Virus record (IMG/VR): IMGVR_UViG_2778261303_000009
Reading direction: 5' to 3' (one strand)
Source: a virus
Taxonomy: Duplodnaviria; Heunggongvirae; Uroviricota; Caudoviricetes
Length of the DNA: 37,383 nt
The notes beneath the pieces were generated by a model, which was given only the letters and a program-made list of their open reading frames with translations, did no database searches and was not told where the DNA came from. A program made the position numbers and the translations under genes. Positions 4,801 through 36,449 of this stretch are shown piece after piece (positions within the stretch are counted from its first letter, which is position 1; every line of letters starts with the position of its first letter).

Positions 4801-7208
4801 GCCATGCCGATATGAACAACTGCTGCGGCTTTAACGAGGCTGCCGCAGCGTTCTCATGGAACAGCCCGAAAAAGGCCATTAACCCTTATCTGGACCCGGC
4901 GGAAGTTGCGCCGGTTTCTGCGCTTTCAAACCTGATCACTCTGTACGCTGCCGATAACGAGCAGGAACAGTTGCGCCGCGAGGCACTGAGTGATCAGGTC
5001 TGGGAGCGTTATTTTTTTAATGAATCACGTGATCCTGTCCAGCACGAAATGGAGCAGGATAAGCTCATTAGCCGGGCAAAGCTGGCGCATGAGCAGCAGC
5101 GTTTTAATCCGGATATGGTCATTCTGGCGGACGTCAACGCCCAGCCTTCCCATATCAGCAAGCCGCTGATGCAACGTATTGAATACTTCAGCAGCCTGGG
5201 CAGGCCAAAGGCTTATTCCCGCTATTTACGTGAGACGATTAAGCCATGTCTGGAACGACTGGAGCATGTACGCGACAGCCAGCTATCTGCATCTTTTCGT
5301 TTTATGGCAAGCCATGTAGGGCTGGACGGCCTGCTGATTCTGCCTGAAATGAGTCAGGATCAGGTGAAACGCCTGTCTACCCTTGTCGCTGCGCATATGA
5401 GCATGTGCCTTGATGCAGCTTGTGGTGATTTGTATGCCACCGATGACGTTAAGCCAGAAGAAATCCGCAAGACATGGGAAAAGGTGGCAGCAGAAACCCT
5501 GCGACTGGATGTTATCCCGCCTGCGTTTGAGCAACTCCGCCGGAAAAGAAACCGCCGTAAACCCGTGCCCTATGAACTCATTCCGGGTTCGCTGGCGCGT
5601 ATGTTGTGCGCCGACTGGTGGTACCGGAAATTATGGAAGATGCGTTGCGAATGGCGGGAAGAGCAGTTGCGTGCTGTTTGCCTGGTCAGCAAAAAAGCAT
5701 CTCCCTATGTCAGCTATGAAGCCGTGATGCATAAACGTGAGCAGCGCCGTAAGTCGCTGGAGTTTTTTCGTTCTCATGAACTGGTGAACGAAGACGGCGA
5801 CACGCTGGACATGGAGGATGTGGTAAACGCCAGCAGCAGCAACCCTGCGCATCGCCGCAATGAGATGATGGCCTGTGTTAAAGGTCTGGAGCTTATCGCG
5901 GAAATGCGCGGTGACTGCGCCGTTTTCTACACCATCACCTGTCCGTCACGTTTCCATTCCACGCTAAATAACGGCAGGCCCAACCCGACCTGGACAAATG
6001 CGACAGTAAGACAAAGCAGTGATTATCTGGTCGGCATGTTTGCTGCATTTCGTAAGGCAATGCATAAAACCGGGCTGCGCTGGTATGGCGTGCGGGTGGC
6101 TGAGCCGCACCATGACGGTACTGTGCACTGGCATCTCATGTGTTTCATGCGCAAAAAAGACCGCCGCGCCATTACTGCATTGTTGCGTAAGTTTGCCATC
6201 CGTGAAGACCGCGAGGAGCTGGGCAATAACACGGGGCCACGCTTTAAGTCTGAGCTGATAAACCCGCGCAAAGGAACGCCGACAAGCTACATCGCGAAAT
6301 ACATCAGTAAGAACATTGACGGACGTGGTCTGGCTGGCGAGATCAGCAAGGAAACGGGTAAATCCCTGCGTGATAACGCCGAATACGTTAATGCCTGGGC
6401 GTCTCTGCATCGTGTTCAGCAGTTCCGCTTCTTTGGTATTCCGGGGCGTCAGGCTTACCGTGAACTTCGCTTGCTGGCTGGTCAGGCGGCAAGGCAACAG
6501 GGTGACAAAAAAGCAGGTGCGCCAGTACTGGATAACCCGCGCCTTGATGCCATTCTGGCTGCTGCTGATGCTGGCTGTTTTGCCACCTACATTATGAAGC
6601 AGGGCGGTGTACTGGTTCCCCGTAAATATCACCTCATCAGAACCGCTTATGAAATCAACGAAGAGCCGACCGCCTATGGCGATCACGGTATTCGTATTTA
6701 TGGCATCTGGTCACCCATTGCAGAGGGCAAGATCTGCACTCATGCGGTGAAGTGGAAAATGGTTCGTAAGGCCGTTGACGTTCAGGAGGCGGCAGCCGAC
6801 CAGGGCGCTTGCGCCCCTTGGACTCGTGGCAATAACTGTCCCCTTGCTGAAAATTTGAACCAACAGGAGAAAGATAAATCAGCTGATGGGGACACCAGAA
6901 CGGACATTACCCGCATGGATGACAAGGAGTTGCACGATTACCTGCACAGTATGAGCAAAAAAGAGCGCCGGGAACTGGCTGCAAGGTTACGTCAGGTGAA
7001 ACCGAAACGGCGTAAAGACTACAAACAGCGAATTACAGACCATCAGCGACAGCAGCTCGTCTATGAACTGAAGTCCAGGGGATTTGATGGCAGCGAGAAA
7101 GAAGTCGATTTGCTCCTTCGCGGTGGCAGTATTCCGTCAGGAGCAGGCCTGCGTATCTTCTATCGGAACCAGCGTTTGCAGGAAGATGATAAGTGGCGAA
7201 ACCTGTAG
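4797..7208 (+). CDS. A: Replication initiation endonuclease (P2 gpA / rolling-circle Rep family)
   Basis: 803-aa ORF with an HUH-like motif (TVHWHLMCF) and a double-tyrosine active-site motif ([10 protein letters not shown]) characteristic of P2 A-type replication proteins. Confidence 0.9.
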
Positions 7209-7303
7209 TGATTACGCTGGTTAACAATTTCTGCTCTTAATAATACCAGGCCTATCAGGCTGATGAACGTAAAAAAACGTTTTACATCAGTAAGATTATT
7301 ATA

Positions 7304-7323
7304 TACTGTAAATATAAACAGTG
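7304..7323 (+). promoter_or_regulatory. LexA (SOS) box TACTGTAAATATAAACAGTG
   Basis: Perfect CTGT-N8-ACAG palindrome with AT-rich centre, about 40 bp upstream of a strong RBS (AGGAGG 7355..7360) and the ATG at 7365. Confidence 0.6.
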
Positions 7324-7364
7324 GTTATGTATACAGTATTGCTTGTAGTGTCATAGGAGGAAAG

Positions 7365-7553
7365 ATGCAGGACTATTTTTTGGAGTCTTTGAAGCTCCAG
7401 CGCATTGATTTTTTTCTTAAGCTTGTAGCGGCCAGTGAGTGTAGTGATGAAGAGAAGAGACTGGCTATCCAGTGGGTTTCTGAGCTGACTGACGAGTTGA
7501 TGGCGAAAATTCGTAACTATGAATACAGCCGTACAATGGACGCTACCAGCTAG
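7365..7553 (+). CDS. SOS-regulated small protein (possible Tum-like antirepressor N-terminal part)
   Basis: 62-aa ORF, ATG at 7365 behind an AGGAGG RBS and the LexA box. Position after gene A corresponds to the LexA-controlled tum region of phage 186. Upstream in-frame extension to 7263 lacks an RBS. Confidence 0.5.
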   Translation: MQDYFLESLKLQRIDFFLKLVAASECSDEEKRLAIQWVSELTDELMAKIRNYEYSRTMDATS

Positions 7554-7563
7554 GGGAAAACCT

Positions 7564-7793
7564 ATGCGCATTGAAACAATGATCGATAAAGAGCAGTAAA
7601 TTAGCCAGGCGCTGTTAGAAGCCGTTGAATCCGAGCTTTACCGCAACCTGCAGCCTATCTATCCAAAGACAGCAATCCGCATTCGTAAAGGTTCGGCAAA
7701 CGGCGTTGAGCTGAGCGGCTTAAAACTTGATGAAGACAAAAGCGAGTGATGGAAATCATGCAGCATGTTTGGGAAGATGAGAGCTGGTTTTAA
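7564..7793 (+). pseudogene. DinI-family gene disrupted by an in-frame stop and a frameshift
   Basis: MRIETMIDKEQ then TAA at 7597..7599; the same frame continues ISQALLEAVESELYRNLQPIYPKTAIRIRKGSANGVELSGLKLDEDKSE to a stop at 7747. A shifted frame (7749..7793) encodes MEIMQHVWEDESWF, matching the DinI C-terminus (ETWESADDWF). Confidence 0.55.
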
Positions 7794-7816
7794 ATATCGA
7801 TTTAGGGGAAAATCTC

Positions 7817-7842
7817 AACCTCATGCAGTATCGCATGAGGTT
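7817..7842 (+). terminator. Hairpin (10-bp stem aacctcatgc / gcatgaggtt, 6-nt loop) downstream of the tum/dinI-like region
   Basis: Perfect inverted repeat followed by a weak T-rich stretch (cattt); marks the boundary before the AT-rich cargo region. Confidence 0.3.
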
Positions 7843-8010
7843 CATTTAGGCGAAATTTGTGGGAATTTTCTACAAGTTTATGAGCGAATAATTCATTTTT
7901 GATGTGTTAATTTCTTAACAATTTTGGCTTTAATTCTTGTAAAGCAAGACATAACGTTTATGATTGATAAATATAAAAAAATCTGAATAGGCAGGAAAGG
8001 AGTTTAACTC

Positions 8011-8526
8011 ATGCCTGGGTTAGAAAATGCACAGCAAAATCAAGTTGATGAAATCGTTCCAGCAATGCAAATCGCATTGGTCGAAGAAGATATAGAACAA
8101 CCCATCGCTGCCGAATACCTATACAGCCAGCATATAAGTGCGCTTGTGCCACAATGCCCTCCTGCCGAAGCGACAGAGTGCGATAGAGAATGCTGGCGTT
8201 TTACACTGAATCCTATAAGTCACAACTGCTTTTGGCCTCCAAAAAGAAGATCACCGCAGCGAATTGCTTCCGACGATGCGGAGGAGTGTTCTATGTGGGC
8301 GTTGTCTATGTATGAATCAGAGGCCCAGGCTACAAGAGCCTATACCATGTTAGCGAAGAAGATGAAAAATATCAGAAAAGCTATTGGTGATCACCTTGCT
8401 GTGGGTTCAGTAACCTGTAGTGATGGTAAATGTATGCCTGCTAGCAGAACCGGTCACTTTGATTTTCATCCTTATGTGGATGCGGATTTCGTTAACGGGT
8501 TCCAAGTAATACGAGCATTACCATGA
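8011..8526 (+). CDS. Cargo protein 1 (171 aa, no recognised domain)
   Basis: ATG at 8011 behind an AAGGAG RBS, after an AT-rich promoter-like spacer. First gene of a co-directional three-gene block; stop overlaps the next start (ATGA). Confidence 0.6.
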   Translation: MPGLENAQQNQVDEIVPAMQIALVEEDIEQPIAAEYLYSQHISALVPQCPPAEATECDRECWRFTLNPISHNCFWPPKRRSPQRIASDDAEECSMWALSMYESEAQATRAYTMLAKKMKNIRKAIGDHLAVGSVTCSDGKCMPASRTGHFDFHPYVDADFVNGFQVIRALP

Positions 8527-9614
8527 TAAAATTAGATGCTAGAAGAATAAATGCGTCAACTGTCGGAGATTATTCTTGGTACTCTGACCTCGTATATTTC
8601 GATGGTCCCCTAATTTGCTTGTTTAGAGGAAGCGGATATAAAGATGCTCTTTATGTCTGGCTCGATAATTCGGAGCGTGCCAATCGTTGGTGCTTGATTC
8701 CAGTATCAAGATCTACTTTGGACTCTTATCTTAACCAAAGAATGAGTTTAAGGGAGATTATACAATCGAGCGAATATACATATATCTGCGATCATTTTGC
8801 GGAAACAGGAAGGAAGCACTACAACATTTTGCACGTTGATAGTTTTCCTGAGGAGTATATGCCTGATGAAGATTCATATTTGTATGAAGAAATATGTACT
8901 GATGATGCATTGCTGTTGAAGCAGGAGCGCACCTCCAGTTATATGCTTGGATTAGATAATCAGTTGTTTATAAATGATTTATCTGTAATACCAAAAATTT
9001 TCGAACAGCTCTATTCTTTCCATTACGGATTGGCTCATTTAGGACGGTTGTCGATTAGAAATACCATGTTGCGTCTGATGGGGAATTGGACGGGTGGAAT
9101 ATCAGCAGTAAATATATTTTCAGGGTTGAAAAATGTTATTCCTGTTTTGCATCGACCAGAGATTAGCTCTCTCCAATACAATTCACCGGGGCATATTGAG
9201 TTAAATTTACTTCCTGATTTGGCTCAAAGTGTTCAAGATGCATCTATTCGTGTGAAAAGTGAGCTAGTTTATGACCGTCTGGAGAAAATGTATAAAAATA
9301 CATATGCATACTTCAAGGATAATGGGCTGTCAGGCTTTGATGAAGACGGCGGCATTGAAATTAGAAATATCGATAGTGATACCACCGAAAACCTACGTAA
9401 ACGCGTAAGAATATTTTTTAGATGTTTGGGGTGGTCAAGTTATCAAGCTCAGTTTGATCTGATCGGTGCCCATCCTCTACAACAATTACGTGCTGTGATG
9501 GCCTACTACAGGCGGCTCAAAATCTTGCGTGAATACATTGTCTCCGAGAAGCTTTTTGTTGGTCAGTCTCGGCTGTTACAGCAGCCACAAATTGCTCTGC
9601 CTCCTGAGGATTAG
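8523..9614 (+). CDS. Cargo protein 2 (363 aa, no recognised domain)
   Basis: Translationally coupled to protein 1. AT-rich codon usage unlike the flanking phage genes. Confidence 0.65.
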   Translation: MIKLDARRINASTVGDYSWYSDLVYFDGPLICLFRGSGYKDALYVWLDNSERANRWCLIPVSRSTLDSYLNQRMSLREIIQSSEYTYICDHFAETGRKHYNILHVDSFPEEYMPDEDSYLYEEICTDDALLLKQERTSSYMLGLDNQLFINDLSVIPKIFEQLYSFHYGLAHLGRLSIRNTMLRLMGNWTGGISAVNIFSGLKNVIPVLHRPEISSLQYNSPGHIELNLLPDLAQSVQDASIRVKSELVYDRLEKMYKNTYAYFKDNGLSGFDEDGGIEIRNIDSDTTENLRKRVRIFFRCLGWSSYQAQFDLIGAHPLQQLRAVMAYYRRLKILREYIVSEKLFVGQSRLLQQPQIALPPED

Positions 9615-9631
9615 ATTCTGCGTTATGCTGC

Positions 9632-10972
9632 ATGAATCCGCATGATCGTTTGAGGATCGTTCTAGATGAGGCCCGCCAGCAATGGCGGGCTTTTGCTAAT
9701 GTCATGCTGGCGCATGAAAACCGCTACATAAAGTGGGCAGGCGTGGCGGGGATACGATTGCGCGCTTATTCCAAAACGGCAATAATTAACTTTTCAAAAC
9801 ATCTACCAGGAAAGACAATGCTTATCTGCGAAGACCATATCGTCGAACCAAACGTAAAAAATCATGTTCGTCTGCAAACTGACAACAACATTTGTGTGTT
9901 TTGTAATGCTGTTACAAAATGCCTAGATACTGATTCGATAGAAGCTCGAAATTTGCTAAAAGCAATCTTACGTTATAACTTTGATGAAGTTCTCTATAAT
10001 ACACATATTGGTGGTGACTATTTCCCAGGTTTTTTATTAGCAGATGATTATATATTTTGCAGGGATATCCAAAGTTACGCTGAAGCATTTACTGATCTTG
10101 ATAGTGAAATATGGAGTATGGGGTTCACAACTGCAGGTGAGATTGATATACATTCAGGACATGATCAAGATGGCATGATGAATATGCCGCTTATGTCAAT
10201 TATTAACTCATATCATCCATTTATAGGAAAATTATCTAAGAAACTTGCTGAAGTAAATTACCATGAGTTTGAAGATGAATTGAGGGATATCATTAAAGAT
10301 TATGGGAATTCTTTTGCCAAAATAATTGAGGGTGGTTCTGTAGTTTATCGTGCTCGCGTAGGGACTGCTGGTTATAAAAAAGCTCATGAAGATTTTAACT
10401 ATGAAGGGAAGAAAATATTCGTTCCATACAAAAATAAAGAAATAGGTTCTGTTCCTCCTCTTAAAGCAACGGCAGGTAGAGCTAATAGAGTCGGGGTTTC
10501 ATACTTATATTGCGCGACTGATAGCTATACAGCGATCGCTGAGGTGAGACCTCATCCTACAGATGTAGTTTCTTTAGGTAAATTTAGCGTATCGCGAGCT
10601 TTAAAAGTATTCGATTTTTCATATCCAAACTTATTAGACTTTATCGAAAATGGCGATACTTTATTGAGAATGATTCCTTACGCTAAAATGGCGGGTATTT
10701 ATAATACCGCTACACCCCCCTCTTTGGAAGGAAGGTATAGTGTTTCGCAGCTCATATCTGACTGCATAAGAAAGGAAGGATACGATGGCATACAGTTTTC
10801 AAGCACTGTTGGTGAAGGGAAAAATTTAGTTGTGTTTAATCCTAGTTACATGGAATTTATTGAGGGGAGTTCAACGGTAATTGAAATTGACAAGGTACAA
10901 TATACATACAAAGAAAAACAAGTAGTAGGGATGAATGATCAGTGGGAGATTTATTATAATGAAGTTGAATAG
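9632..10972 (+). CDS. Cargo protein 3 (446 aa): N-terminal Cys/His-containing region plus C-terminal RES-like domain
   Basis: C-terminal half carries RES-domain-like motifs: VVYRARVG, then AGRANRVGVSYLYCATDSYTAIAEVRPH (GRxN...LYxA...AxxE), then GYDGIQFSSTVGEGKNLVVFNP (DGIxxxS...N.VVF). The start codon is uncertain because the RBS is weak. Confidence 0.65.
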   Translation: MNPHDRLRIVLDEARQQWRAFANVMLAHENRYIKWAGVAGIRLRAYSKTAIINFSKHLPGKTMLICEDHIVEPNVKNHVRLQTDNNICVFCNAVTKCLDTDSIEARNLLKAILRYNFDEVLYNTHIGGDYFPGFLLADDYIFCRDIQSYAEAFTDLDSEIWSMGFTTAGEIDIHSGHDQDGMMNMPLMSIINSYHPFIGKLSKKLAEVNYHEFEDELRDIIKDYGNSFAKIIEGGSVVYRARVGTAGYKKAHEDFNYEGKKIFVPYKNKEIGSVPPLKATAGRANRVGVSYLYCATDSYTAIAEVRPHPTDVVSLGKFSVSRALKVFDFSYPNLLDFIENGDTLLRMIPYAKMAGIYNTATPPSLEGRYSVSQLISDCIRKEGYDGIQFSSTVGEGKNLVVFNPSYMEFIEGSSTVIEIDKVQYTYKEKQVVGMNDQWEIYYNEVE

Positions 10973-10981
10973 GTAAATGTG

Positions 10982-11003
10982 GCTCCGCAATTTTTGGCGG
11001 AGC
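10982..11003. terminator. Bidirectional hairpin between convergent cargo operon and portal gene (gctccgc-aatttttg-gcggagc)
   Basis: 7-bp perfect stem with a T-rich loop and flank, in the 44-bp gap between the stop of cargo protein 3 (10972) and the stop of Q (11017). Confidence 0.35.
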
Positions 11004-11016
11004 TAATTTTATGATG

Positions 11017-12048
11017 TTAACCTAATGAGTATGAGTCAAATCTTATTGTTTTATCTCCTAGCCAATTGTTAATTTCGACCATTCTTTTCTGTAATGGAAT
11101 AAGCTCATTTCGCACAAATACATTAGCCGCCTTCTCCACATCCCCAAATCCCCCAACATTATTCGGCATAATCCCCATCATTTGCGGCGGTACACGGTGC
11201 GCAGCCATCATGTCATCACGGCTCACGTTCTTGATATTCAGAAACTCATCCTTCGCTGCGACTTCTGACAACGGGATAATCTGAAGTCCGTCCTTTTTGC
11301 CGTTAGGCGAGTACATAAACAGATTGCGGAAGTTGCCAGGGCCTTTGGCGCTTTTCATCGCATTGCGGAGGTTGTTCACATCCTCCTGGTTCTGCGCTGC
11401 ATCGGTCATGTACATGATGAAGCCTGCATGACTACCGTTAATGTAATATTTGCGGCGGAACAGCGTGGCGGACTCGTTGAGCAAAGCGGATGGGATGGCA
11501 GAAAGATAGCCGGGCAGGCCGTAGATCTCCTGATTAATATCCGGTTCCATCAGATGAAAAATGCTGCCTTTCGTGAACTGATACGGCTGGGTTGTCATAC
11601 CGTATTGCACAAACCAGTAGGTATCCAGGTCTAACCCGCGTCGGGTATATTTTGCCAGGGCAGGCTCAAGGGCGATAACTTCACCGAAGCGGTTCGTGCG
11701 TTTCTCCAGGTAGGCGTTACCAAATACCAGGTAGTCCTGCACAAAACGTGAAAAAGCCTGCTGGCTGAGCAGCGGGTGAGGGATATAGGTACTGGTCAGA
11801 ATGTTGCACTTTACTGCAATCGGGGAACTGTGATGCACGGCAGCGCGGAAGGTGCGCGCCAGTCCGTCAAAGCTGACGGGCGGCTCATACCAACGGTCCA
11901 TCTGTACGCATTCCACATAGTCCAGTAGTTCGCGGCGGTCCAGAACAGGAACGGGATCACCGAAGCTGAATGCTTCGGCTGTAGTTTGACTTTTATGCTG
12001 GATCTGGTTCGTCGACGCAGCGCGGTTCTTCTTACTCTTTCCCATCAA
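11017..12048 (-). CDS. Q: Portal protein (P2 gpQ-like)
   Basis: 343-aa ORF resembling P2-family portal proteins as recalled. Overlaps the terminase gene start, as in the P2 Q-P operon. Confidence 0.9.
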   Translation of the reverse strand: MMGKSKKNRAASTNQIQHKSQTTAEAFSFGDPVPVLDRRELLDYVECVQMDRWYEPPVSFDGLARTFRAAVHHSSPIAVKCNILTSTYIPHPLLSQQAFSRFVQDYLVFGNAYLEKRTNRFGEVIALEPALAKYTRRGLDLDTYWFVQYGMTTQPYQFTKGSIFHLMEPDINQEIYGLPGYLSAIPSALLNESATLFRRKYYINGSHAGFIMYMTDAAQNQEDVNNLRNAMKSAKGPGNFRNLFMYSPNGKKDGLQIIPLSEVAAKDEFLNIKNVSRDDMMAAHRVPPQMMGIMPNNVGGFGDVEKAANVFVRNELIPLQKRMVEINNWLGDKTIRFDSYSLG

Positions 12049-18552: not shown

Positions 18553-18946
18553 AGCGGTGCCTTATGTCCGCAATAACCCGGACAAACTGCATCTGTTTGT
18601 GGATAACGGTTCGCTGGTTGCTACGGGGGCCAGCTCCATGTCATGGGAGTACCGTTACACCCTGAACGTGGTGATTGAGGATTTCAGCGGCGACCAGAAT
18701 CTGTTGATGGCCCCGGTTTTATTGTGGCTGCGGGATAACCAGCCTGATGCCATCAATAACCCGGCGTTACGGGAAAAGTTATTCACCTTTGAGGTGGATA
18801 TTTTGCGCAACGATGTCTGTGATATCAGCCTTAACCTGCAACTGACGGAGCGTGTGCTGGTCAGCACTGACGGCAGTGTGTCGAGTGTTGAAGCTGTAGA
18901 GGAACCCGATGAACCTGAAGAAATGTGGACGGTGAAACGTGGCTGA
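18515..18946 (+). CDS. R: Tail completion protein (P2 gpR-like)
   Basis: Likely GTG start at 18515 behind an AGGAG RBS. Sequence (FVDNGSLVATGASSMSWEYRYTLNVVIEDFSGD...) matches gpR as recalled. Confidence 0.75.
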   Translation: MNKPQSLRHALNKAVPYVRNNPDKLHLFVDNGSLVATGASSMSWEYRYTLNVVIEDFSGDQNLLMAPVLLWLRDNQPDAINNPALREKLFTFEVDILRNDVCDISLNLQLTERVLVSTDGSVSSVEAVEEPDEPEEMWTVKRG

Positions 18947-19385
18947 ATTGCAGAAGGTGGACGACTGGCTGAGTGCCTTGCTGGCGAATCTGGAGCCAGC
19001 CGCAAGAAGCCGCATGATGCGCCAGCTGGCGCAGGAACTGCGCCGGACACAGCAGCAGAATATCAGGATGCAGCGCAACCCTGATGGCAGCAGTTATGAA
19101 CCGCGCAGGGTAACAGCACGCAGTAAAAAAGGCCGTATCAAACGGCAGATGTTTGCAAAGCTGCGCACCACAAAATACCTGAAAACCGCCGCCAGCGCGG
19201 ATTCTGCCAGCGTGCAGTTTGAAGGTAAGGTGCAGCGTATTGCCCGTGTTCATCACTACGGCCTGCGCGATCGCGTCAGTCGCAAAGGACCGGAGGTCCG
19301 TTATGCAGAGCGTCGCCTGCTGGGTGTAAATGATGATTTATACTTTTTAACACGACGCATTTTATTGCAATGGTTGGCGAGGTAG
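18939..19385 (+). CDS. S: Tail completion protein (P2 gpS-like)
   Basis: GTG start overlapping the R stop. Sequence RNPDGSSYEPRR... is typical of gpS. Confidence 0.75.
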   Translation: MAELQKVDDWLSALLANLEPAARSRMMRQLAQELRRTQQQNIRMQRNPDGSSYEPRRVTARSKKGRIKRQMFAKLRTTKYLKTAASADSASVQFEGKVQRIARVHHYGLRDRVSRKGPEVRYAERRLLGVNDDLYFLTRRILLQWLAR

Positions 19386-19442
19386 AGTTGGTTGACTTTT
19401 TGTAGTTCCTACTCTAACCTCACCGATTGATTTTAGGTTATA

Positions 19443-21197
19443 TCAATCCCAAAATAAATTATTATTAATATTGCTCATATCGAAAGTGAAGTTCTTTTCT
19501 GTAATAGTTTCGTACCTTTGTTCATAGATTATTTTTACATATCTAAACCCCTGTGTTACAGAGCGAATTTTTCGGGGTTTTGATGCAAGCATAACAAGTA
19601 TTTCAAATACTTTATCAAGATAGTTGTGGGTGTGTTCAACTAAAAGGGGGGTAAATTTACCACCTTTTCCAGAATGGACTATGTTATTTCTTGTTCTATA
19701 AATTCTTCTGAGTTGCCATTCTAATCTTAACTTATGGTTATCTAAAGTTGATTTAATTGACTCCGGGGATGAAACTATGTTTTTTATATACTCGAAACGA
19801 TCTGAAAGCAATGTGTAATCACGAAATTTAGCGGATAAAGATTCCCTTACTGATTCGTATTCAGGAAGAATCATTATATTGGCTAGTTTGTGTTTCGCTT
19901 TTGCTCCAGGTATTCCTTTTAAATGTGAGTTTAGCATGTGCCTATTCCATAACAGCAGGTCTCGAGTAAGGTTGTCAATTAAGGAGTCTATATATGTAAT
20001 ATTCAGGAATGGAATTATACTTGCAGTAATATGTTCTATTGTTGCTTGATCCTTGGATTTAGTGTCTGTCGGCACTAATGATTCAAGAGCTATCCATAGA
20101 TTTAAAAGCTGATTTTCAACATTTTCACTTTTTAATGCCATTGAATGTAATTGAATACTTCTCAAGAACTTGGCAAATGAACTATTTTCTAGAGAAAACT
20201 CAGACATCAATGATTCAAGACGTTTCTTGGCCTTTTCATGCTTTAAGTCCTTGCATTTTTTCATGGGGTTAAGTCTTTCAGCCACTTTCAAAGAGTCTGT
20301 ATCAGTTATAACGAAAGCTTCATTTGACCAAGTAGGTTTATCTTTATGATGATAAATATTTAAAAAGGATGATGCTAATTTAAGTAGGTTTTCAGCATTC
20401 TCTCTTGCTGAATAAGAATCAAAAGCTTCTATATTTGATACGCAAACTATCTTCTTTCTTTGCAGATTTCTAAAAAAAACATGTTGGGAAAATTCTTCTG
20501 GTGGTTCTTTCTCAACAGACAAAGAGAGTCTTTCGAAAGTTGGCTCGGCGCCTAAAAACACTGGTTCAACAATAAAATATATTTTGTATTTCTTTTTTTC
20601 GAGTTTTATTAAATCAAAAAAAGAAGAGACATCAGTGTTATTTGAGATTTTATTATTCCCATAATAAAAAAATTGCTGGGTTAAATTCTTAAGATTATGT
20701 TGGCTAAAGCCAATGTAGAGTAATAAGCTGATATAATTTCTTGTTAGCTTGCGTATGATGCTTCTTTCCCAGTTTGGGGATGATAACTCTTGGGTGATAA
20801 GTTCTTCACTTTTTTCTTTATATAATTTGGGTGGTAATTGAATGACCAGCATTTCAATTATTGAGCTTCTCTCTTTAGGGCTTATGTTAGTATTTTTTAG
20901 TTTGTTGAGAAAAGCTTGGTAAGCATCGCCTAATAAATGTTGTGCTACTTTATCACATGACAAGTTATGTATTAATTCTGCGGTTAAATGTTCAATATTT
21001 TTAGGCTGAATAATACCATCCTCAACATCTTTAATTGTATTTAAAGTTTCTATTCCAATTGTTGGGGTATTCATCACTGAGGGTTTGTATGTGTCCAGTG
21101 TATAGTCAAATAGCATTTCATCCAGTAATTGCGCAAAATATACTAGTGCTTTACAAGTGTCTGGGCAATCCCATTTATACAAAGAACGAAATTTCAT
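19443..21197 (-). CDS. Cargo protein (584 aa) with C-terminal HEPN-type RNxxxH motif; candidate abortive-infection RNase
   Basis: Very AT-rich ORF antisense to the late operon, between S and V. Near the C-terminus, LEWQLRRIYRTRNNIVHSGKGG contains RNNIVH (R-N-x3-H), encoded at 19674..19691. Confidence 0.65.
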   Translation of the reverse strand: MKFRSLYKWDCPDTCKALVYFAQLLDEMLFDYTLDTYKPSVMNTPTIGIETLNTIKDVEDGIIQPKNIEHLTAELIHNLSCDKVAQHLLGDAYQAFLNKLKNTNISPKERSSIIEMLVIQLPPKLYKEKSEELITQELSSPNWERSIIRKLTRNYISLLLYIGFSQHNLKNLTQQFFYYGNNKISNNTDVSSFFDLIKLEKKKYKIYFIVEPVFLGAEPTFERLSLSVEKEPPEEFSQHVFFRNLQRKKIVCVSNIEAFDSYSARENAENLLKLASSFLNIYHHKDKPTWSNEAFVITDTDSLKVAERLNPMKKCKDLKHEKAKKRLESLMSEFSLENSSFAKFLRSIQLHSMALKSENVENQLLNLWIALESLVPTDTKSKDQATIEHITASIIPFLNITYIDSLIDNLTRDLLLWNRHMLNSHLKGIPGAKAKHKLANIMILPEYESVRESLSAKFRDYTLLSDRFEYIKNIVSSPESIKSTLDNHKLRLEWQLRRIYRTRNNIVHSGKGGKFTPLLVEHTHNYLDKVFEILVMLASKPRKIRSVTQGFRYVKIIYEQRYETITEKNFTFDMSNINNNLFWD

Positions 21198-21213
21198 TTT
21201 TGTTATTCCATAT

Positions 21214-21231
21214 TGTAAGACCGCTCATACA
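21214..21231. promoter_or_regulatory. TGT-N12-ACA dyad (late-activator site) upstream of V
   Basis: TGTAAGACCGCTCATACA lies 47-64 bp upstream of the V ATG and 17 bp from the start of the divergent cargo gene. Confidence 0.35.
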
Positions 21232-21277
21232 AATACATATGTTTTAAGATAAATGCAAGATGTTGAATCATTGCCCT

Positions 21278-21856
21278 ATGAACGCACAACTTACCGAAAT
21301 CATGCGCCTTATCACCAACCTGATCCGCACTGGGGTAGTCACCGAAGTGGACCGGGAACACTGGCTTTGTCGGGTGAAAACGGGCGACCTTGAAACCAAC
21401 TGGATTAACTGGCTGACACTGCGCGCGGGCAAATCGCGCACCTGGTGGAAACCGTCTGTGGGCGAGCAGGTTGTGCTATTCAGCCTGGGTGGCAATCTGG
21501 AAACCGCGTTTGCCCTACCTGCTGTCTACTCAAATCAGTTTCCACCACCTTCTGACTCTGAGGACGGCAACGTGGTTGAGTACCCGGACGGTGGCAGGTT
21601 TGAATACGAACCCGCCACCGGGCGCTGGTATGTCAGGGGCATCAAATCTATGGTCATTGAGGCTGCCGACAATATCACCCTGAAAACCAGTGAGTTTGTA
21701 CTGGAGGCTGACCGCACACGCATTAACAGCGAAGTAGTGATCAATGGTGGTGTTACCCAGGGCGGCGGTGCAATGAGTTCTAACGGAATTGTGGTTGATG
21801 CACATCAGCATACTGGCGTCCTGAAAGGCGGTGACACAACCGGAGGCCCGGTATGA
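21278..21856 (+). CDS. V: Baseplate spike/assembly protein (P2 gpV-like)
   Basis: Aligns with the P2 gpV N-terminus (MN...IRTG...WLTLRAGKSRTWWKPSVGEQV). An alternative in-frame ATG lies at 21260. Confidence 0.8.
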   Translation: MNAQLTEIMRLITNLIRTGVVTEVDREHWLCRVKTGDLETNWINWLTLRAGKSRTWWKPSVGEQVVLFSLGGNLETAFALPAVYSNQFPPPSDSEDGNVVEYPDGGRFEYEPATGRWYVRGIKSMVIEAADNITLKTSEFVLEADRTRINSEVVINGGVTQGGGAMSSNGIVVDAHQHTGVLKGGDTTGGPV

Positions 21857-23705: not shown

Positions 23706-25243
23706 GCACAAAATTTTATACCCTGCTGACGGATATTGGCGCGGCGAAACTTGCCAGCGCCGCCGCGCTCGGTGTGCCTTTAAAAATTACCCATATGGCG
23801 GTCGGCGATGGCGGCGGAGTATTGCCAACGCCGGATGCAAAGCAGACTGCACTGGTGAATGAGAAACGCCGGGCTGCGCTGAATATGCTCTATATCGACC
23901 CGCAGAACAGTAGCCAGATTATTGCTGAACAGGTGATCCCTGAAAATGAGGGCGGTTGGTGGATACGTGAAGTGGGCCTGTTTGATGAGTCCGGGGCATT
24001 GATTGCCGTGGGAAACTGCCCGGAAAGCTATAAGCCGCAACTGGCTGAAGGCAGTGGGCGTACCCAGACCGTGCGCATGGTGCTGATTACCAGCAGCACG
24101 GACAATATCACCCTGAAAATCGACCCTGCCGTCGTGCTGGCAACCCGCAAGTATGTGGATGACAAGGTACTGGAGCTGAAGGTGTTCGTGGATGATAAGA
24201 TGGCAAAACATCTTGCCGCACCGGACCCGCATTCACAGTATGCACCCAAAGAAAGCCCGACATTGACCGGAACACCCAAAGCGCCAACGCCAGCGGAGGG
24301 GAATAACACCACGCAGATTGCGACCACCGCGTTTGTTCAGGCGGCACTGATGGCCCTTATTAATGGTGCGCCAGCCACACTGGATACGCTGAAAGAAATT
24401 GCCGCTGCCATTAATAATGACCCGAAATTCAGTACCACCATTAACAATGCGCTGGCACTGAAAGCGCCGCTGTCGAGTCCGGCACTCACCGGAACGCCAA
24501 CAGCACCTACTGCGGCACAGTCGGTCAACAATACACAGATTGCCACCACGGCATTTGTGAAATCGGCGATTGCGGCAATGGTGGGTTCTGCACCTGCGGC
24601 ACTGGATACACTGAACGAACTGGCGGCGGCACTGGGGAATGATCCGAACTTTGCCACGACAATGCTTAATGCGCTGTCAGGTAAACAACCGCTGGACAAT
24701 ACGCTTACCAATTTGAGTGGAAAGGATGTAGCTGGTCTTCTCACATACCTTGGTTTGGGAGAAGGCTCTGCATTACCTGTTGGTGTGCCTGTTCCGTGGC
24801 CTTCCGCCACTCCGCCGACAGGCTGGCTGAAATGCAATGGTGCGGCTTTTTCTGCTGAAGAATACCCGGAACTGGCAAAGGCTTACCCGACAAATAAATT
24901 GCCTGATTTACGCGGTGAGTTTATTCGTGGCTGGGATGACGGACGTGGAGTGGATAACGGAAGGGGATTATTAACGCTTCAGGACGGTGCGATTGTCAGT
25001 CATAACCACTATTGGGGAATCTGGACTTCACGAACTAACGACCAGACTCTGGAAAGTTTTACAGGCACCACGATTTTAAAACAAATCACGCCCCTGTCTC
25101 CGGCCATTGACTTCGATAATTACCCAATTCCCAACCCGGCTATTACAGAGGGTGGTGTTGTTGCGGCAACGACTAAACCTGCAGGTGCGAATGAAACACG
25201 CCCACGAAATGTCGCTTTTAACTATATTGTGAGGGCTGCATAA
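23702..25243 (+). CDS. H: Tail fibre protein (P2 gpH-like) with invertible C-terminal host-range domain
   Basis: 513-aa ORF with repeated tail-fibre motifs (TGTPKAPTPAEGNNTTQIATTAFV / TGTPTAPTAAQSVNNTQIATTAFV) and a C-terminal tail-collar-like segment (LPDLRGEFIRGWDDGRGVD). A recombinase crossover site lies at codons about 346-354. Confidence 0.85.
   Translation: MSTKFYTLLTDIGAAKLASAAALGVPLKITHMAVGDGGGVLPTPDAKQTALVNEKRRAALNMLYIDPQNSSQIIAEQVIPENEGGWWIREVGLFDESGALIAVGNCPESYKPQLAEGSGRTQTVRMVLITSSTDNITLKIDPAVVLATRKYVDDKVLELKVFVDDKMAKHLAAPDPHSQYAPKESPTLTGTPKAPTPAEGNNTTQIATTAFVQAALMALINGAPATLDTLKEIAAAINNDPKFSTTINNALALKAPLSSPALTGTPTAPTAAQSVNNTQIATTAFVKSAIAAMVGSAPAALDTLNELAAALGNDPNFATTMLNALSGKQPLDNTLTNLSGKDVAGLLTYLGLGEGSALPVGVPVPWPSATPPTGWLKCNGAAFSAEEYPELAKAYPTNKLPDLRGEFIRGWDDGRGVDNGRGLLTLQDGAIVSHNHYWGIWTSRTNDQTLESFTGTTILKQITPLSPAIDFDNYPIPNPAITEGGVVAATTKPAGANETRPRNVAFNYIVRAA
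24738..24763. repeat. Left invertase crossover site (ttctcacatacc-tt-ggtttgggagaa) inside H
   Basis: 26-bp imperfect palindrome with central TT. Its right half, ttggtttgggagaa (24750..24763), is a perfect 14-bp inverted repeat of 26592..26605. Confidence 0.55.
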
Positions 25244-25845
25244 TGAATAACGCAGAATTAAACAGTGAATTAATTGCCACTATGGCAGGAGAAATTACTG
25301 TTTATAACTTTGATGTCATGAGTCGGGAATATATTTCAGCTTCAACTGAATATCTTGCTATTGGTGTCGGCATTCCGGCATATTCCTGTTTAGATGCCCC
25401 AGGCGCATACAAAGCTGGTTATGCAATCTGCCGATCTGCAGATTTTAACTCATGGGAATATGTGCCAGACCATCGCGGTGAAATCATCTTTAGCACCGAA
25501 ACAGGAGAATCAAAAGAAATCACAGTTCCGGGTGATTACCCTGATAATACAACCACTATCGCCCCGTTAACGCCATACGATAAATGGGATGGTGAGAAAT
25601 GGGTGGCGGATACCGAAGCACAGCATAACGCCGCAGTAGATGCAGCAGAAGCACAGCGCCAGTCACTGATTGATGCTGCAATGGCTTCCATTAGTCTGAT
25701 TCAGCTGAAATTACAGGCCGGACGGAAGTTGACGCAGGCAGAAACCACCCGACTTAACGCCGTGTTGGATTACATTGACGCGGTGGCGGCAACAGATACC
25801 AGCACCGCGCCGGATGTCATCTGGCCTGAACTGCCGGAGACGTAG
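25243..25845 (+). CDS. G: Tail fibre assembly chaperone (P2 gpG-like)
   Basis: 200-aa ORF starting at the H stop (TAATG). C-terminal motif DTSTAPDVIWPELP is shared with the alternative chaperone. Confidence 0.8.
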   Translation: MNNAELNSELIATMAGEITVYNFDVMSREYISASTEYLAIGVGIPAYSCLDAPGAYKAGYAICRSADFNSWEYVPDHRGEIIFSTETGESKEITVPGDYPDNTTTIAPLTPYDKWDGEKWVADTEAQHNAAVDAAEAQRQSLIDAAMASISLIQLKLQAGRKLTQAETTRLNAVLDYIDAVAATDTSTAPDVIWPELPET

Positions 25846-26254
25846 GCCATTCAATATCTGGAGCACTGGAGGTATCAACCAGTTCCAGTGCGTCCAGATA
25901 ATCCAGCCACAAATTATATTGCGCCAGTTCCTCACCTTTCAGACGACCAATAGCGGCTTTACCGGGCCATTGTTTACTGTTCATGTATTCGTTGGCCTGA
26001 TTAAGCAATAATTGCCTTTCTGATTCTGCCTGTTGAATAAGTTCTTCATATGATGGTGGAGGTATTAGTGCCCATGTGGGTAATCCATTTTTTCCTGCAA
26101 CACGAATTTTGTCATCTGGGGGCGTATTGATTGCAAATTCATTATAAACATCATCACTGACAGCCAGAGCATCATCTGGCCATGAATTTGCATTAATGTA
26201 ATCATCCTTAAGCGCAGGATTCACAAAAATGTTTAAAGATGGACTATAAAACAT
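25817..26254 (-). CDS. Alternative tail fibre assembly chaperone (expressed after inversion)
   Basis: 145-aa minus-strand ORF with C-terminal DTSSAPDIEWP, paralogous to the G C-terminus. Start lies 1 bp after the stop of the alternative fibre cassette (TAATATG arrangement). Confidence 0.6.
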   Translation of the reverse strand: MFYSPSLNIFVNPALKDDYINANSWPDDALAVSDDVYNEFAINTPPDDKIRVAGKNGLPTWALIPPPSYEELIQQAESERQLLLNQANEYMNSKQWPGKAAIGRLKGEELAQYNLWLDYLDALELVDTSSAPDIEWPTSPAVQAR

Positions 26255-26255
26255 A

Positions 26256-26604
26256 TTAAACCCCTATAGCGATATAACGACCTAATACAGCATTTGCAGC
26301 AGTCGCTATGCTTGAAAAACCGCGGAACTGATTTGATGTAATTGCAGAAGCCGACAGGATTCCTGCGCCTGAAGGTGTATGCCCCACATGACTAACTATC
26401 ATCCCATAACATGCTGACGGAAAGGCAAAAGGAAAATCATTAAGATATCCGGCATCTTCACCACCAGACCCACCAAATCTCGCCTGCCCCCACTGAATAA
26501 TCAGTGTTCTCCGGGAACCTGAAATAATTAACGGAATCGTTACATACCCATTCAGGCCAATGACACCCGATGCAGTGCCAGCCAGAGATAATTCTCCCAA
26601 ACCA
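26256..26604 (-). other. Promoterless alternative tail-fibre C-terminal cassette (fuses to constant part of H after inversion)
   Basis: Minus-strand reading frame is open from the crossover site (encoding ...GLGE...) to a stop at 26256. The ATG at 26645 is probably fortuitous. Confidence 0.5.
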
Positions 26605-26617
26605 ACGTTTAAGAAAA
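26592..26617. repeat. Right invertase crossover site (ttctcccaaacc-aa-cgtttaagaaaa)
   Basis: 26-bp imperfect palindrome with central AA, resembling hix/gix-type sites. 21/26 identical to the reverse complement of the left site; located 55 bp upstream of the invertase start. Confidence 0.55.
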
Positions 26618-26672
26618 TGCAGAGATAATGGCTAACTGGCATCATCCCCGGTTTTTATTCAGGGGATTGATC

Positions 26673-27239
26673 ATGCTTATTGGCTATGTACGCGTGTCAA
26701 CAAATGACCAGAACACCGATTTGCAACGTAATGCACTGAACTGCGCGGGATGTGAGCGGATTTTTGAGGATAAAATCAGTGGCACTAAGTCCGACAGACC
26801 GGGGCTTAAAAAACTGCTCAGGATACTATCGGCAGGAGACACGCTGGTTGTCTGGAAGCTGGACAGACTGGGGCGCAGTATGCGGCATCTTGTTACGCTG
26901 ATAGAAGAGTTGCGCCAGCGTGGTGTGAATTTCCGAAGCCTGACTGACAGTATTGATACCAGTACCTCAATGGGCCGTTTCTTTTTTCACGTCATGGGGG
27001 CTCTGGCTGAAATGGAACGTGAACTGATAGTTGAACGTACCAGAGCAGGGCTGGCTGCAGCTCGTGCCAAAGGCAGAGTAGGTGGACGTCGTCCTAAATT
27101 GACCACCGAACAGTGGGCACAGATTGGACGTTTACTCGAGGCCGGAGAATCAAGACAGCGTATTGCACTGATTTTTGATGTGGGCGTTTCTACCATTTAT
27201 AGAAAATTTCCGGCGAATGAGAGCAATGAATTGCCCTGA
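26673..27239 (+). CDS. Serine DNA invertase (Hin/Gin/Cin/Pin family)
   Basis: N-terminus MLIGYVRVSTNDQNTDLQRNAL with catalytic serine, resolvase domain and C-terminal HTH (GRRPKLTTEQWAQIGRLLEAG). ATG at 26673 behind an AGGGGA RBS. Confidence 0.85.
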   Translation: MLIGYVRVSTNDQNTDLQRNALNCAGCERIFEDKISGTKSDRPGLKKLLRILSAGDTLVVWKLDRLGRSMRHLVTLIEELRQRGVNFRSLTDSIDTSTSMGRFFFHVMGALAEMERELIVERTRAGLAAARAKGRVGGRRPKLTTEQWAQIGRLLEAGESRQRIALIFDVGVSTIYRKFPANESNELP

Positions 27240-34763: not shown

Positions 34764-36449
34764 TTATCCTAATCCTGGCCATACCATGACGATGATTGTC
34801 CCTGCCAGCGTCAGCAGGACGTTGGCGATTGCATAGGTGCCCGCATAGCCCAGCGCCGGGATGTTACTGCGAGCTGTATCACTGATGATCTCCATTGCCG
34901 GCGCGCAGGTACGTGCGCCCATCATTGCGCCGAACAACAGCGCGCGGTTCATTCGCAATACATAAGCACCGAACAAGAAACAGATAACCACGGGCACCAG
35001 ACTGACAATCAATCCGGCAATCAACATCTGACCGCCAATCGCGCCCAGGCCGTTATTAATACCGCTACCGGCGCTCAGACCAACGCCTGCCATAAACACC
35101 ATCAAGCCGAACTCTTTCACCATGCTTAATGCACCCTGCGGAATGTAACCGAAGGTCGGGTGGTTAGCACGCATAAAGCCCAGCATAATTCCGGCGAATA
35201 ACAACCCGGCAGCGTTCCCCATGCCGAAACTGAATGTGCTGAACTGGAAGGTGATCATCCCGATCATCAGCCCAATAACAAAGAAGGCGCAAAATGCCAG
35301 CAGGTCAGTGACCTGGCTGTGAATCGAGATAAAGCCGATGCGATCGGCGATGGTTTTTACGCGACGGGCATCACCGCTGACTTGTAAAACGTCACCTTTG
35401 TTAAGCACGACGTTGTCATCTATCGGCATCTCAATCTGGCTACGAATGACGCGGTTAAGGAAGCAACCGTGATCGGTCAACTTCAGTTGTGCGAGACGTT
35501 TACCTACAGCGTTATGGTTTTTAACGACCACTTCTTCAGTGACGATACGCATGTCGAGAAGGTCACGATCGAAAACTTCTTTACCGTTACGGAAGCTGGG
35601 ATCGAGTCGGGCATGGGCGTCGGGATAGCCTACCAACGCTATTTCATCGCCCATTTGTAGCACGGCATCACCGTCTGGATTTGCCAGAATCCCGTTACGT
35701 CGAATACGTTCAATGTAGCAGCCGGTTTGTCGATAAATACCCAGTTCACGCAGATTTTTGCCGTCGGTCCAGGCCACCAGCTCCGGGCCGACGCGATAGG
35801 CGCGGATCACCGGTAAATAAACCTTACGGTTGGCATCAGTGTCCAGGCCACGTTCGCGGGCGATTTGCTGGGCGCTGGTCTGTAAGTCCTGATGCTGCAA
35901 TTTCGGCAAGTAACGCGCACCAACAATCAAACTCACCAGACCGATTAAATAGGTTAAGGCATACCCGAGGCTCAGATTATCCAGTGCCAGTGAGAGCTGC
36001 CTGCTTTCCATGCCGGAATGACGCAGTGTATCGCCAGCACCGACCAGAACCGGTGTCGACGTCATAGAGCCTGCTAACATACCGGCCGTCAGGCCAATAT
36101 CCCAGCCAAACAGCTTACCTAACCCTAAGGCGATCACCAGCGCACTGCCAACCATCACCAGTGCTAACATTAGGTAATTTTTCCCATCGCGAAAAAAAAT
36201 GGAAAAAAAGTTCGGTCCGGCTTCAACCCCAACACAGAAAATAAACAGCATAAAGCCAAGATTAAGCGCATCGGTGTTAATGCTGAAATGTTGTTGGCCT
36301 AATAACAGCGATACGACTAAAACGCCAATGGAATTACCCAGTTGGATCGAACCAAGTCGTAACTTTCCGAGACATAGCCCAAGCGCGAGGACCACAAATA
36401 ATAACAGAATGTAATTCCCATTTAACAATTCGGCGACGTTTATATTCAC
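34764..36449 (-). CDS. ybjL: Putative transport protein YbjL (AAE-type transporter with two RCK_C/TrkA-C domains)
   Basis: 561-aa membrane protein, N-terminus [42 protein letters not shown] matches E. coli YbjL as recalled. Synteny with ybjM and grxA. Confidence 0.85.

Follow-up and report, generated by a model that had tools for sequence, protein, structure and literature searches.

What does a large AT-rich gene do among the tail genes of a prophage, on the strand opposite to theirs? The window, the whole 37,383-nucleotide stretch of DNA that was analysed, has at this place an intact ATG-started open reading frame of 584 amino acids plus stop (19443..21197, minus strand, in the ORF listing of the window). 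The GC content is 0.324 (GC3 0.275), compared with 0.553 in gene S and 0.549 in gene V on either side. Length, strand and composition are as described in an earlier note made from the sequence alone, and the C-terminal sequence LEWQLRRIYRTRNNIVHSGKGG is found in the translation exactly as quoted there. That note placed the gene antisense to the late operon, which holds for the strand but not for a position inside one operon: the gene fills the gap between two late operons, converging on the O operon, which ends in S, and diverging from the V operon. Our explanation is that its product is an antiphage protein of the ApeA family, that the gene is an Ec3ApeA allele and the only gene of a cargo in the S/V (orf30) slot of a P2/186-like prophage, and that the protein acts by the mechanism proposed below; we put the probability of this explanation as a whole at about 0.9.

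An allele of Ec3ApeA

The protein matches Ec3ApeA (PDB 9HXJ chain A) over amino acids 1-584 with 1289 bits and 579 of 584 residues identical, and for practical purposes the two are the same protein. The substitutions are I49V, H87D, T135I, V190A and M421I, none of them at a residue that the Ec3ApeA paper identifies as functional, and Ec3ApeA is matched at every catalytic, pocket and interface residue. Similarity to Ec2ApeA also extends over the full length (E = 5.5e-135 over amino acids 1-581, 40% identity), and Ec1ApeA (E = 2.2e-10, amino acids 19-535) and Ec4ApeA (E = 6e-8) are matched as well. The HEPN fold of the protein is predicted from its 99% sequence identity to the solved Ec3ApeA chain.

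Profile searches detect this relationship poorly. The PADLOC ApeA profile gives a match (E = 1.2e-12) that covers only amino acids 337-535, and scans of the protein with Pfam, NCBIfam and PHROGs gave sub-threshold hits only (MauJ 0.11, VanR 0.066, phrog_25096 0.04). This is a sensitivity gap of the profiles and not evidence against membership in ApeA. The earlier note had proposed a search of HEPN families with ApeA-like proteins on its list; the Pfam part of that search gave nothing significant, and ApeA is the match, by PADLOC and by the sequence of the structure chain. The note had also held that no named family could be assigned, but the family has a name and is already characterised. Its central idea, a single-protein HEPN RNase carried as a prophage moron for abortive infection or exclusion, is supported by the PADLOC match and by a published relative five substitutions away. 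The family, its structure and its mechanism have been published and the allele in the window is nearly identical to one that has been tested; because only 5 of 584 residues separate it from Ec3ApeA, the gene represents interesting biology rather than a discovery.

ApeA proteins are described as HEPN tRNA-anticodon nucleases that act by abortive infection (Juozapaitis et al., bioRxiv 10.64898/2026.01.26.701840). According to the same preprint, monomers dimerise through their HEPN domains into composite RNase sites, and the dimers build a ring in which the active sites face a tRNA-sized channel. The solved proteins have a split HEPN domain with helices H1-H4, HepT is their closest structural relative and the Rx4-6H motif lies on helix H3 in the Ec2ApeA structure. 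Ec3ApeA is a dodecamer by cryo-EM with a Zn2+ site, in contrast to the decamer of Ec2ApeA. Phage specificities vary among the homologues (10.64898/2026.01.26.701840): protection by Ec3ApeA in plaque assays was 'moderate', and that by Ec2ApeA is stronger with a distinct spectrum. The ring reported for Ec3ApeA should apply to the window protein, given the five substitutions between them.

The three-domain layout of Ec2ApeA (PDB 9HXI and related entries) can be transferred by alignment. The N-terminal domain would comprise approximately amino acids 1-199 (20601..21197, minus strand; Ec2ApeA 1-198) and the mid domain, with approximate limits, amino acids 200-311 (20265..20600, minus strand; Ec2ApeA 199-309). 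The HEPN_ApeA domain, a split HEPN with insertions, would extend over approximately amino acids 336-584 (19446..20192, minus strand; Ec2ApeA 335-583), where the PADLOC match is also found. Residue mapping places Q549, R552 and K555 of the ring interface in this last domain. Part of the interface differs from that of Ec2ApeA, which has E554, Q99 and I112 at the positions of K555, K99 and S112.

The HEPN Rx4-6H RNase chemistry is shared with the PrrC and RloC anticodon nucleases, with HepT and with Csm6/Csx1. PrrC also resembles ApeA in its tRNA anticodon-loop target and abortive response, but its ATPase domain and restriction-enzyme partner are absent in ApeA. Csm6/Csx1 are likewise activated allosterically by a nucleotide ligand, but through a CARF domain and a CRISPR-made signal, whereas the ligand of ApeA is a by-product of infection and not a dedicated second messenger. 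HepT has an MNT antitoxin partner and the window ApeA has none; a HEPN-MNT type II toxin-antitoxin system was considered and rejected because the cargo has no second open reading frame for an antitoxin and is flanked by S and V.

The S/V slot and its flanking elements

Gene S (virion morphogenesis/tail completion; 18939..19385, plus strand; Pfam Phage_tail_S, E = 1.6e-39) lies to the left of the gene and V (baseplate assembly/spike; 21278..21856, plus strand; annotation of the near-identical E. coli EC416 prophage) to the right. P2 carries Orf30, annotated as 'nonessential', on the opposite strand between its S and V (NC_001895), as the earlier note had correctly stated. In other prophages the junction is either empty (68 bp) or occupied by genes for DUF6216, FRG, TIR, DUF5677, a 288-aa protein or ApeA, and it is empty in about 60% of the sampled E. 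coli P2-like prophages. Variable content between core genes together with atypical GC (0.32 versus 0.55) marks it as a slot for accessory genes. Alignment of the left junctions shows that the last 40 or so nucleotides of S vary with the cargo, and on the right the sequence becomes homologous to all other loci again at about the V ATG. The cargo module is about 1.8 kb with apeA as its sole open reading frame and margins of 57 bp to the S stop (19385) and 16 bp to the activator dyad (21214) described below. Orf30, whose function is unknown, and the other S/V cargo (DUF6216, FRG, TIR, DUF5677) share with apeA the slot, the single-gene organisation and mostly the antisense orientation to the late genes.

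The position among the tail genes is the one point that speaks for a role of the protein in phage structure or morphogenesis, or for homology to P2 Orf30. This is extremely improbable, considering that the slot is empty in most of the sampled prophages and holds unrelated genes in others, that similarity to Orf30 is absent (E = 0.38), that there is no PHROGs match and that distant homologues of apeA sit outside prophages. A structural role, which the earlier note had itself named as contrary to its proposal, is ruled out by the empty-site prophages. A tblastn search against 50,697 phage records gave zero matches to apeA, so the gene is absent from these deposited phage genomes despite its location in a prophage.

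Two regulatory elements border the cargo. A long imperfect hairpin that spans the stop codon of S and precedes GATTGATTTT (19372..19428, plus strand) folds with -24.8 kcal/mol (z = -3.7) on the plus strand and -29.1 kcal/mol (z = -6.6) on the minus strand. The hairpin probably terminates the O late operon; it is located between the convergent S and apeA, and P2 has its annotated O-operon terminator at the matching relative position (NC_001895). A strict scan for intrinsic terminators over 19200-21500 called none, and the hairpin emerged only by folding. At the right edge of the cargo a TGT-N12-ACA dyad (21214..21231, plus strand), the Ogr-type activator site of the V late promoter P_V, starts at a distance of 17 bp from the start codon of apeA. 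The dyad is kept in the window, in the empty site, in the Ec2ApeA locus and in a Klebsiella locus. From its centre to the V ATG (21278) downstream there are 55.5 bp, the distance that separates the activator site (10239-10266) from the V transcription start (10308) in P2.

Ec2ApeA is itself encoded antisense between the S and V genes of a P2-like prophage. It thus shares slot and orientation with the window apeA, as does an 80%-identical Klebsiella orthologue. The slot shared by Ec2ApeA and Ec3-type ApeA suggests a natural context for these proteins, in which a prophage shields its host against lytic phages that break down the host's DNA. Natural prophage context is not discussed in the biochemical ApeA papers: the paper on Ec3ApeA (10.64898/2026.01.26.701840) does not mention a prophage origin, and the prophage slot is absent from that preprint, from 10.64898/2026.03.20.713152 and from a 2026 P2/P4 hotspot preprint.

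Active site, ligand pocket and trigger

The earlier note had pointed to RNNIVH as an R-N-x3-H signature of HEPN RNases, and the conservation of the motif shows that it is no chance match. R503, N504 and H508 of the motif R503-N504-N505-I506-V507-H508 (Rx4H; 19674..19691, minus strand) are invariant in 57 of 57 homologues with identities down to 38%, and they align with R502, N503 and H507 of Ec2ApeA. The residue numbers in the note were right, and the R503A mutant it proposed has its equivalent in Ec2ApeA R502A, which abolishes defence. Defence is also lost in the Ec2ApeA mutants Q494Y, R490A, H487A, Y401F and Y37F, and in Ec1ApeA it is abolished by R521A (10.64898/2026.01.26.701840).

Ec2ApeA is activated by 5'-phospho-deoxydinucleotides ending in G (pdNG), bound in a pocket distant from the active site (10.64898/2026.01.26.701840). 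By transfer from Ec2ApeA the N-terminal domain of the window protein would form one wall of this pocket with T36, Y37, S40, V41, M42, E74, R149 and R153, and residue mapping puts the remaining pocket residues, Y402, Y470, H488, R491, Q495, H522 and Y526, in the HEPN_ApeA domain. Fourteen of the fifteen side chains are identical to those in Ec2ApeA; at the fifteenth position I41 has become V41, and the contact there is made by the main chain. The mapped roles include guanine readout by E74, a wall of the guanine site made by R491 and S40, and a sandwich of the 5' base between R149 and Y470. Nine of these residues (T36, Y37, E74, R149, R153, Y402, H488, R491 and Q495) are invariant in the 57 homologues, and the residues that alter the pocket in Ec1ApeA (D75, K41, D509 and T506) are not present. 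Since the residues that contact pdNG in Ec2ApeA are conserved, the window ApeA most likely responds to the same class of ligand.

The trigger might also be another small molecule or a nucleic-acid feature bound in the pocket, as proposed for Ec1ApeA. Activation by pdNG has been demonstrated for Ec2ApeA only, whose pocket is also the only one with ligand density, none being seen in the other homologues, Ec3ApeA included (10.64898/2026.01.26.701840). Deoxydinucleotides do not activate Ec1ApeA, Ec3ApeA protects more weakly than Ec2ApeA and with a different profile, and both the regulatory loop and some ring-interface residues are unlike those of Ec2ApeA. We regard such a trigger as possible but less probable than pdNG, because the identical side chains comprise those that contact the ligand or are essential to the pocket in Ec2ApeA, with main-chain contact at V41, and the conserved positions are exactly those substituted in Ec1ApeA. 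The missing density may stem from purification as MBP fusions and not from low affinity.

With a pdNG-type trigger, the activating molecule would be made as an invading lytic DNA phage degrades the host DNA. The ApeA RNase would then be switched on and would cut host tRNAs in the anticodon loop, by analogy with Ec1ApeA and Ec2ApeA, the two homologues in which cleavage has been mapped (10.64898/2026.01.26.701840). Translation would halt and the infected cell would be sacrificed.

Between pocket and active site the signal is probably relayed somewhat differently than in Ec2ApeA, because S335 and E337 take the place of the arginines of the Ec2 loop. The counterpart of the loop core is S335-L336-E337-N338 (20184..20195, minus strand), aligned to R334-M335-R336-K337 in Ec2ApeA. 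Among the 57 homologues the consensus has S in 47 and E in 39, and the arginines of Ec2 are rare. S335/E337/N338 resembles the 'Trip' mutant of Ec2ApeA (A/E/A), which is hyperactive but poor at defence (10.64898/2026.01.26.701840), so the relay model for Ec2 is not transferable unchanged.

Ec1ApeA (PDB 9HXN), the original ApeA, has the same architecture as the window protein and is a HEPN-dependent tRNA-anticodon nuclease. It is active against ssRNA phages as well, whose genomic RNA it cleaves with the HEPN domain and the pocket involved, and the cell survives (10.64898/2026.03.20.713152). Direct, non-abortive cleavage of RNA-phage genomes, as in Ec1ApeA and Ps2ApeA, is nevertheless unlikely to be the main role of the window protein. 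Among the homologues tested, a set without Ec3ApeA, protection against RNA phages was confined to the Ec1/Ps2 clade (10.64898/2026.03.20.713152), and the window protein is distant from Ec1ApeA (E = 2.2e-10) with a pocket of the Ec2 type. An abortive response to DNA phages is preferred here.

Expression, maintenance and defence context

The lysogen presumably expresses ApeA without the late operons, since the gene is flanked by the O-operon terminator on one side and the P_V activator site on the other and runs in the opposite direction. The scan of 19200-21500 found no sigma-70 consensus promoter in the 80 bp upstream of apeA; the sole promoter-like element visible is a TACAAT hexamer (21212-21217, minus strand) that overlaps the P_V dyad. 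To our knowledge, phages of the P2 type do not break down the chromosome of their host, and therefore the induction of the prophage itself would not trigger ApeA.

A wider proposal, tentative and on balance doubtful, combines three elements. The Ec2 and Ec3 lineages, the best-studied enterobacterial ApeA, would be native cargo of the orf30 slot, binding of the Ogr-type activator, so close to the apeA start codon, could shut apeA off at induction, and the Ec2 relay (R334/R336) would be an exception to an S/E loop as the rule. If true, the shut-off at the lytic switch would spare the phage's own development. Neither the slot-linked shut-off nor the S/E loop as a rule is addressed in 10.64898/2026.01.26.701840 or 10.64898/2026.03.20.713152.

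The gene might also be a decaying or silent passenger that has no function in this prophage at present. H-NS often silences acquired genes that are AT-rich, and a consensus promoter was not found. EC416, the only complete E. coli genome with the gene, has a copy split by a frameshift (a 1-nt deletion at codon 176), and a truncated 372-aa product forms a cluster of 36 member sequences. In the window, however, the frame is full-length and none of the catalytic or pocket residues is lost, and the full-length protein cluster (P0001) has 75 member sequences. The comparison with the Klebsiella orthologue gives pN/pS = 0.15, as proportions only because synonymous sites are saturated (pS = 0.82) and a Jukes-Cantor dS is not computable; apeA is therefore kept by selection. 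We consider a passenger very unlikely and an active defence gene the better explanation.

The clade of the window protein is missed by Pfam, NCBIfam and PHROGs and only partly matched by PADLOC. Proteins of the window type are routinely annotated as 'hypothetical protein'. ApeA is not mentioned in Rousset 2022, in the iLund4u preprint, or in the text and accessible supplements of the 2026 P2/P4 preprint, a large survey of P2 hotspots. Defence inventories may undercount the clade because of the profiles, the annotation label and the absence of ApeA from the accessible part of the P2 hotspot survey.

Defence loci in the window prophage number at least two, ApeA in one hotspot and PD-T4-10 in another, and a RES-domain gene follows PD-T4-10. 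The combination of ApeA and PD-T4-10 makes this prophage a convenient natural system for studying how defence loci combine.

The ApeA protein and its activity

The 584-aa minus-strand ORF with an RNNIVH motif claimed in the earlier note is present exactly as described. This ORF, apeA (19443..21197, minus strand), starts with ATG and is intact in the window, and RNNIVH constitutes residues 503-508 within LEWQLRRIYRTRNNIVHSGKGG. The AT-richness compared with the tail genes was borne out, with a GC content of 0.324 (GC3 0.275) against 0.553 and 0.549 in the flanking genes and 0.502 in the whole window.

Searches with the protein in Pfam, NCBIfam and PHROGs recognised no family, and the ApeA model in PADLOC matched residues 337-535 only (E = 1.2e-12). 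The decisive result came from the search among solved structures, where the ApeA part of PDB 9HXJ ('Bacterial antiviral defense protein Ec3ApeA') aligns with all 584 residues with five substitutions (I49V, H87D, T135I, V190A and M421I), and the protein is therefore identified as ApeA. The window thus carries an allele nearly identical to a defence protein for which both a structure and functional tests have already been published. The same search gave Ec2ApeA (E = 5.5e-135; 40% identity), Ec1ApeA (2.2e-10) and Ec4ApeA (6e-8). A large protein database contained an E. coli cluster at 99% identity, approximately 80%-identical proteins in Citrobacter, Klebsiella and Serratia, and numerous homologues with 38-47% identity, nearly all labelled 'hypothetical protein'.

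ApeA defends the cell as a single protein, whose RNase domain is of the HEPN type and lies at the C-terminus in a layout of N-terminal, Mid and split-HEPN domains; it dimerises via HEPN and builds doughnut-shaped decamers, whereas Ec3ApeA forms a dodecamer (Juozapaitis et al., 10.64898/2026.01.26.701840). The RNase cleaves the anticodon loop of host tRNAs. [quoted passage not shown] Ec1ApeA also restricts ssRNA phages by cutting the genome without killing the cell, an activity confined to the Ec1/Ps2 clade (10.64898/2026.03.20.713152). The near-identity to Ec3ApeA supports the earlier reading of the gene as a HEPN defence factor, and we consider it about 90% probable that the window protein is an ApeA that cuts tRNA anticodons with its HEPN domain and works through abortive infection.

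Ligand pocket, regulatory loop and ring interface

The protein was aligned with Ec2ApeA (as cluster representative) and six others, and then with 56 homologues. R503, N504 and H508 correspond to R502, N503 and H507 in Ec2ApeA, and none of the three varies in any of the 57 sequences.

In Ec2ApeA, 5'-phospho-deoxydinucleotides ending in G (pdNG) switch on tRNA cleavage in vitro. Mutations in the pocket abolish binding as well as defence, and toxicity is relieved by an enzyme that degrades deoxydinucleotides; ligand density in the pocket was seen in Ec2ApeA but in none of the other homologues (10.64898/2026.01.26.701840). The window protein keeps the Ec2ApeA pocket residues T36, Y37, S40, M42, E74, R149 and R153 as well as Y402, Y470, H488, R491, Q495, H522 and Y526, and the sole exception is V41 in place of I41, where the contact is made through the main chain. 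Positions where the Ec1ApeA pocket diverges carry the Ec2-type residue. Because this pocket is retained, the trigger may well be of the pdNG type.

The signal relay in Ec2ApeA is a loop of residues 331-341 (10.64898/2026.01.26.701840). Its R334, R336 and K337 differ from S335, E337 and N338 in the window protein, where the loop (aa 335-338) is encoded at 20184-20195 on the minus strand. The family consensus is S-L-E-N/K, with S in 47 and E in 39 of 57 homologues, so the loop of Ec2ApeA is the unusual one. The hyperactive 'Trip' mutant of Ec2ApeA (A-M-E-A) resembles the consensus more than wild-type Ec2 (R-M-R-K) does, and for this reason the published relay mechanism may be specific to Ec2ApeA. 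At the ring interface, E554, Q99 and I112 in Ec2ApeA are replaced by K555, K99 and S112, differences that fit a dodecamer better than a decamer.

The slot between S and V

The left neighbour of apeA is gene S (18939-19385, plus strand; Phage_tail_S, Pfam E = 1.6e-39), and the right neighbour, with its ATG at 21278, is the baseplate assembly protein V according to the annotation of a near-identical prophage. P2 has a gene at this junction, as the earlier note stated: Orf30 ('nonessential') is antisense between S and V in NC_001895. The antisense orientation of apeA was likewise confirmed. This single-gene cargo of approximately 1.8 kb lies between two late operons and inside neither.

Homology to other P2-like prophages stops in the last ~40 nt of S and restarts just upstream of V at a TGT-N12-ACA dyad (21214-21231), which is common to the window, an empty site, the Ec2ApeA locus and the Klebsiella locus. 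The centre of the dyad precedes the V ATG by 55.5 bp, the same distance as between the annotated activator-binding site of the P2 late promoter P_V and the annotated V transcription start. The convergent stop codons of S and apeA are separated by 57 bp, part of a strong hairpin spanning the S stop codon (fold z = -3.7 on the plus and -6.6 on the minus strand) and followed by GATTGATTTT; its position is that of the annotated O-operon terminator of P2. No sigma-70 consensus promoter was found in the 80 bp between the ATGs of apeA and V. A TACAAT hexamer (21212-21217, minus strand) overlaps the dyad, and a regulatory coupling between the two is speculation. The gene is probably expressed from the lysogen.

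Among 5,426 complete E. coli genomes, apeA was found in one, EC416 (NZ_AP027404.1), with 99.2% DNA identity over window positions 19300-21350. In this genome the gene is split by the loss of one nucleotide at nt 526 (codon 176), and the annotation lists two hypothetical proteins. A cluster of 36 member sequences represents the shortened 372-aa product, thus the broken allele circulates.

Of the 1,059 records matching S-apeA-V, 60 were sampled evenly; the junction was empty in 32 (68-bp gap), held a single cargo gene in 20 and was unresolved in 8. The cargo included DUF6216 (5), FRG (2), TIR, DUF5677, PcfJ, several hypotheticals and, once, ApeA; most of the cargo genes other than ApeA are uncharacterised and are candidate defence genes. 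The TIR gene runs in the direction of the late genes. The orf30 slot in E. coli P2-like prophages is a diversity hotspot of single-gene cargo, with ~38% of the sampled junctions filled.

The genes for Ec2ApeA and for the Klebsiella orthologue with 80% identity also lie in this slot and are oriented alike. Homologues with 38-45% identity in Burkholderia, Paralcaligenes and Lysobacter are found outside it: beside an RM system, in an integrase/IS66/conjugation region and in plain chromosome. Comparison with the Klebsiella orthologue (pN = 0.124, pS = 0.82, pN/pS = 0.15) indicates strong purifying selection on apeA. Since pS is saturated despite 80%-identical proteins in a shared slot, the association looks old rather than the result of recent transfer. 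S and V have 69% and 74% nucleotide identity between the window and the Klebsiella prophage.

The gpA-portal hotspot was described by Rousset et al. in 2022, the iLund4u preprint added Z/fun and a third beside CI, and a 2026 preprint reported further P2 defence hotspots, one of them 'downstream of GpL' in the late genes with 16% of P2 systems; that interval may include the S/V slot. ApeA is not mentioned in these three sources (text and supplements as far as searched), prophages are not mentioned in the two ApeA preprints (10.64898/2026.01.26.701840 and 10.64898/2026.03.20.713152), and 'ApeA' did not co-occur with 'P2-like' in the literature searched. Documentation of ApeA in the orf30 slot may therefore be lacking so far, although this link concerns context and does not make a new system.

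The remainder of the prophage

Elsewhere the window looks like a complete P2/186-like prophage with integrase, CI-type repressor, portal/terminase block, and head, lysis and tail genes. Over the late region its DNA is ~95% similar to that of Escherichia and Klebsiella P2-like phages. No tRNA genes were found across the whole window. A second defence locus (8011-10972, plus strand) within an AT-rich stretch (~7200-11000) lies in the classic P2 hotspot. On one side of this hotspot is an 803-aa ORF (4797-7208) in the place of gpA, an assignment from position and length only, and on the other is the ORF at the portal position (11017-12048, minus strand). The defence locus consists of PD-T4-10 A (8011-8526, plus strand; PADLOC E = 9.8e-76), PD-T4-10 B (8523-9614, plus strand; E = 1.3e-172) and a 446-aa RES-domain protein (9632-10972, plus strand; Pfam RES E = 2.9e-18) that had no PADLOC match. 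With ApeA and PD-T4-10, the prophage thus has defence cargo in at least two hotspots.

The ORFs at 25243-27239 look like an invertible tail-fibre segment, with a tail-fibre assembly ORF (25817-26254, minus strand; Caudo_TAP), a fibre C-terminus (26256-26645, minus strand; Gp53-like_C) and, adjacent to these, a gene for a resolvase/invertase (26628-27239; Pfam Resolvase E = 3.1e-52). Beyond the 366-aa ORF at the gpD position, a gene for a 561-aa Asp-Al_Ex/TrkA_C transporter (34764-36449, minus strand) is probably host chromosome flanking the prophage.
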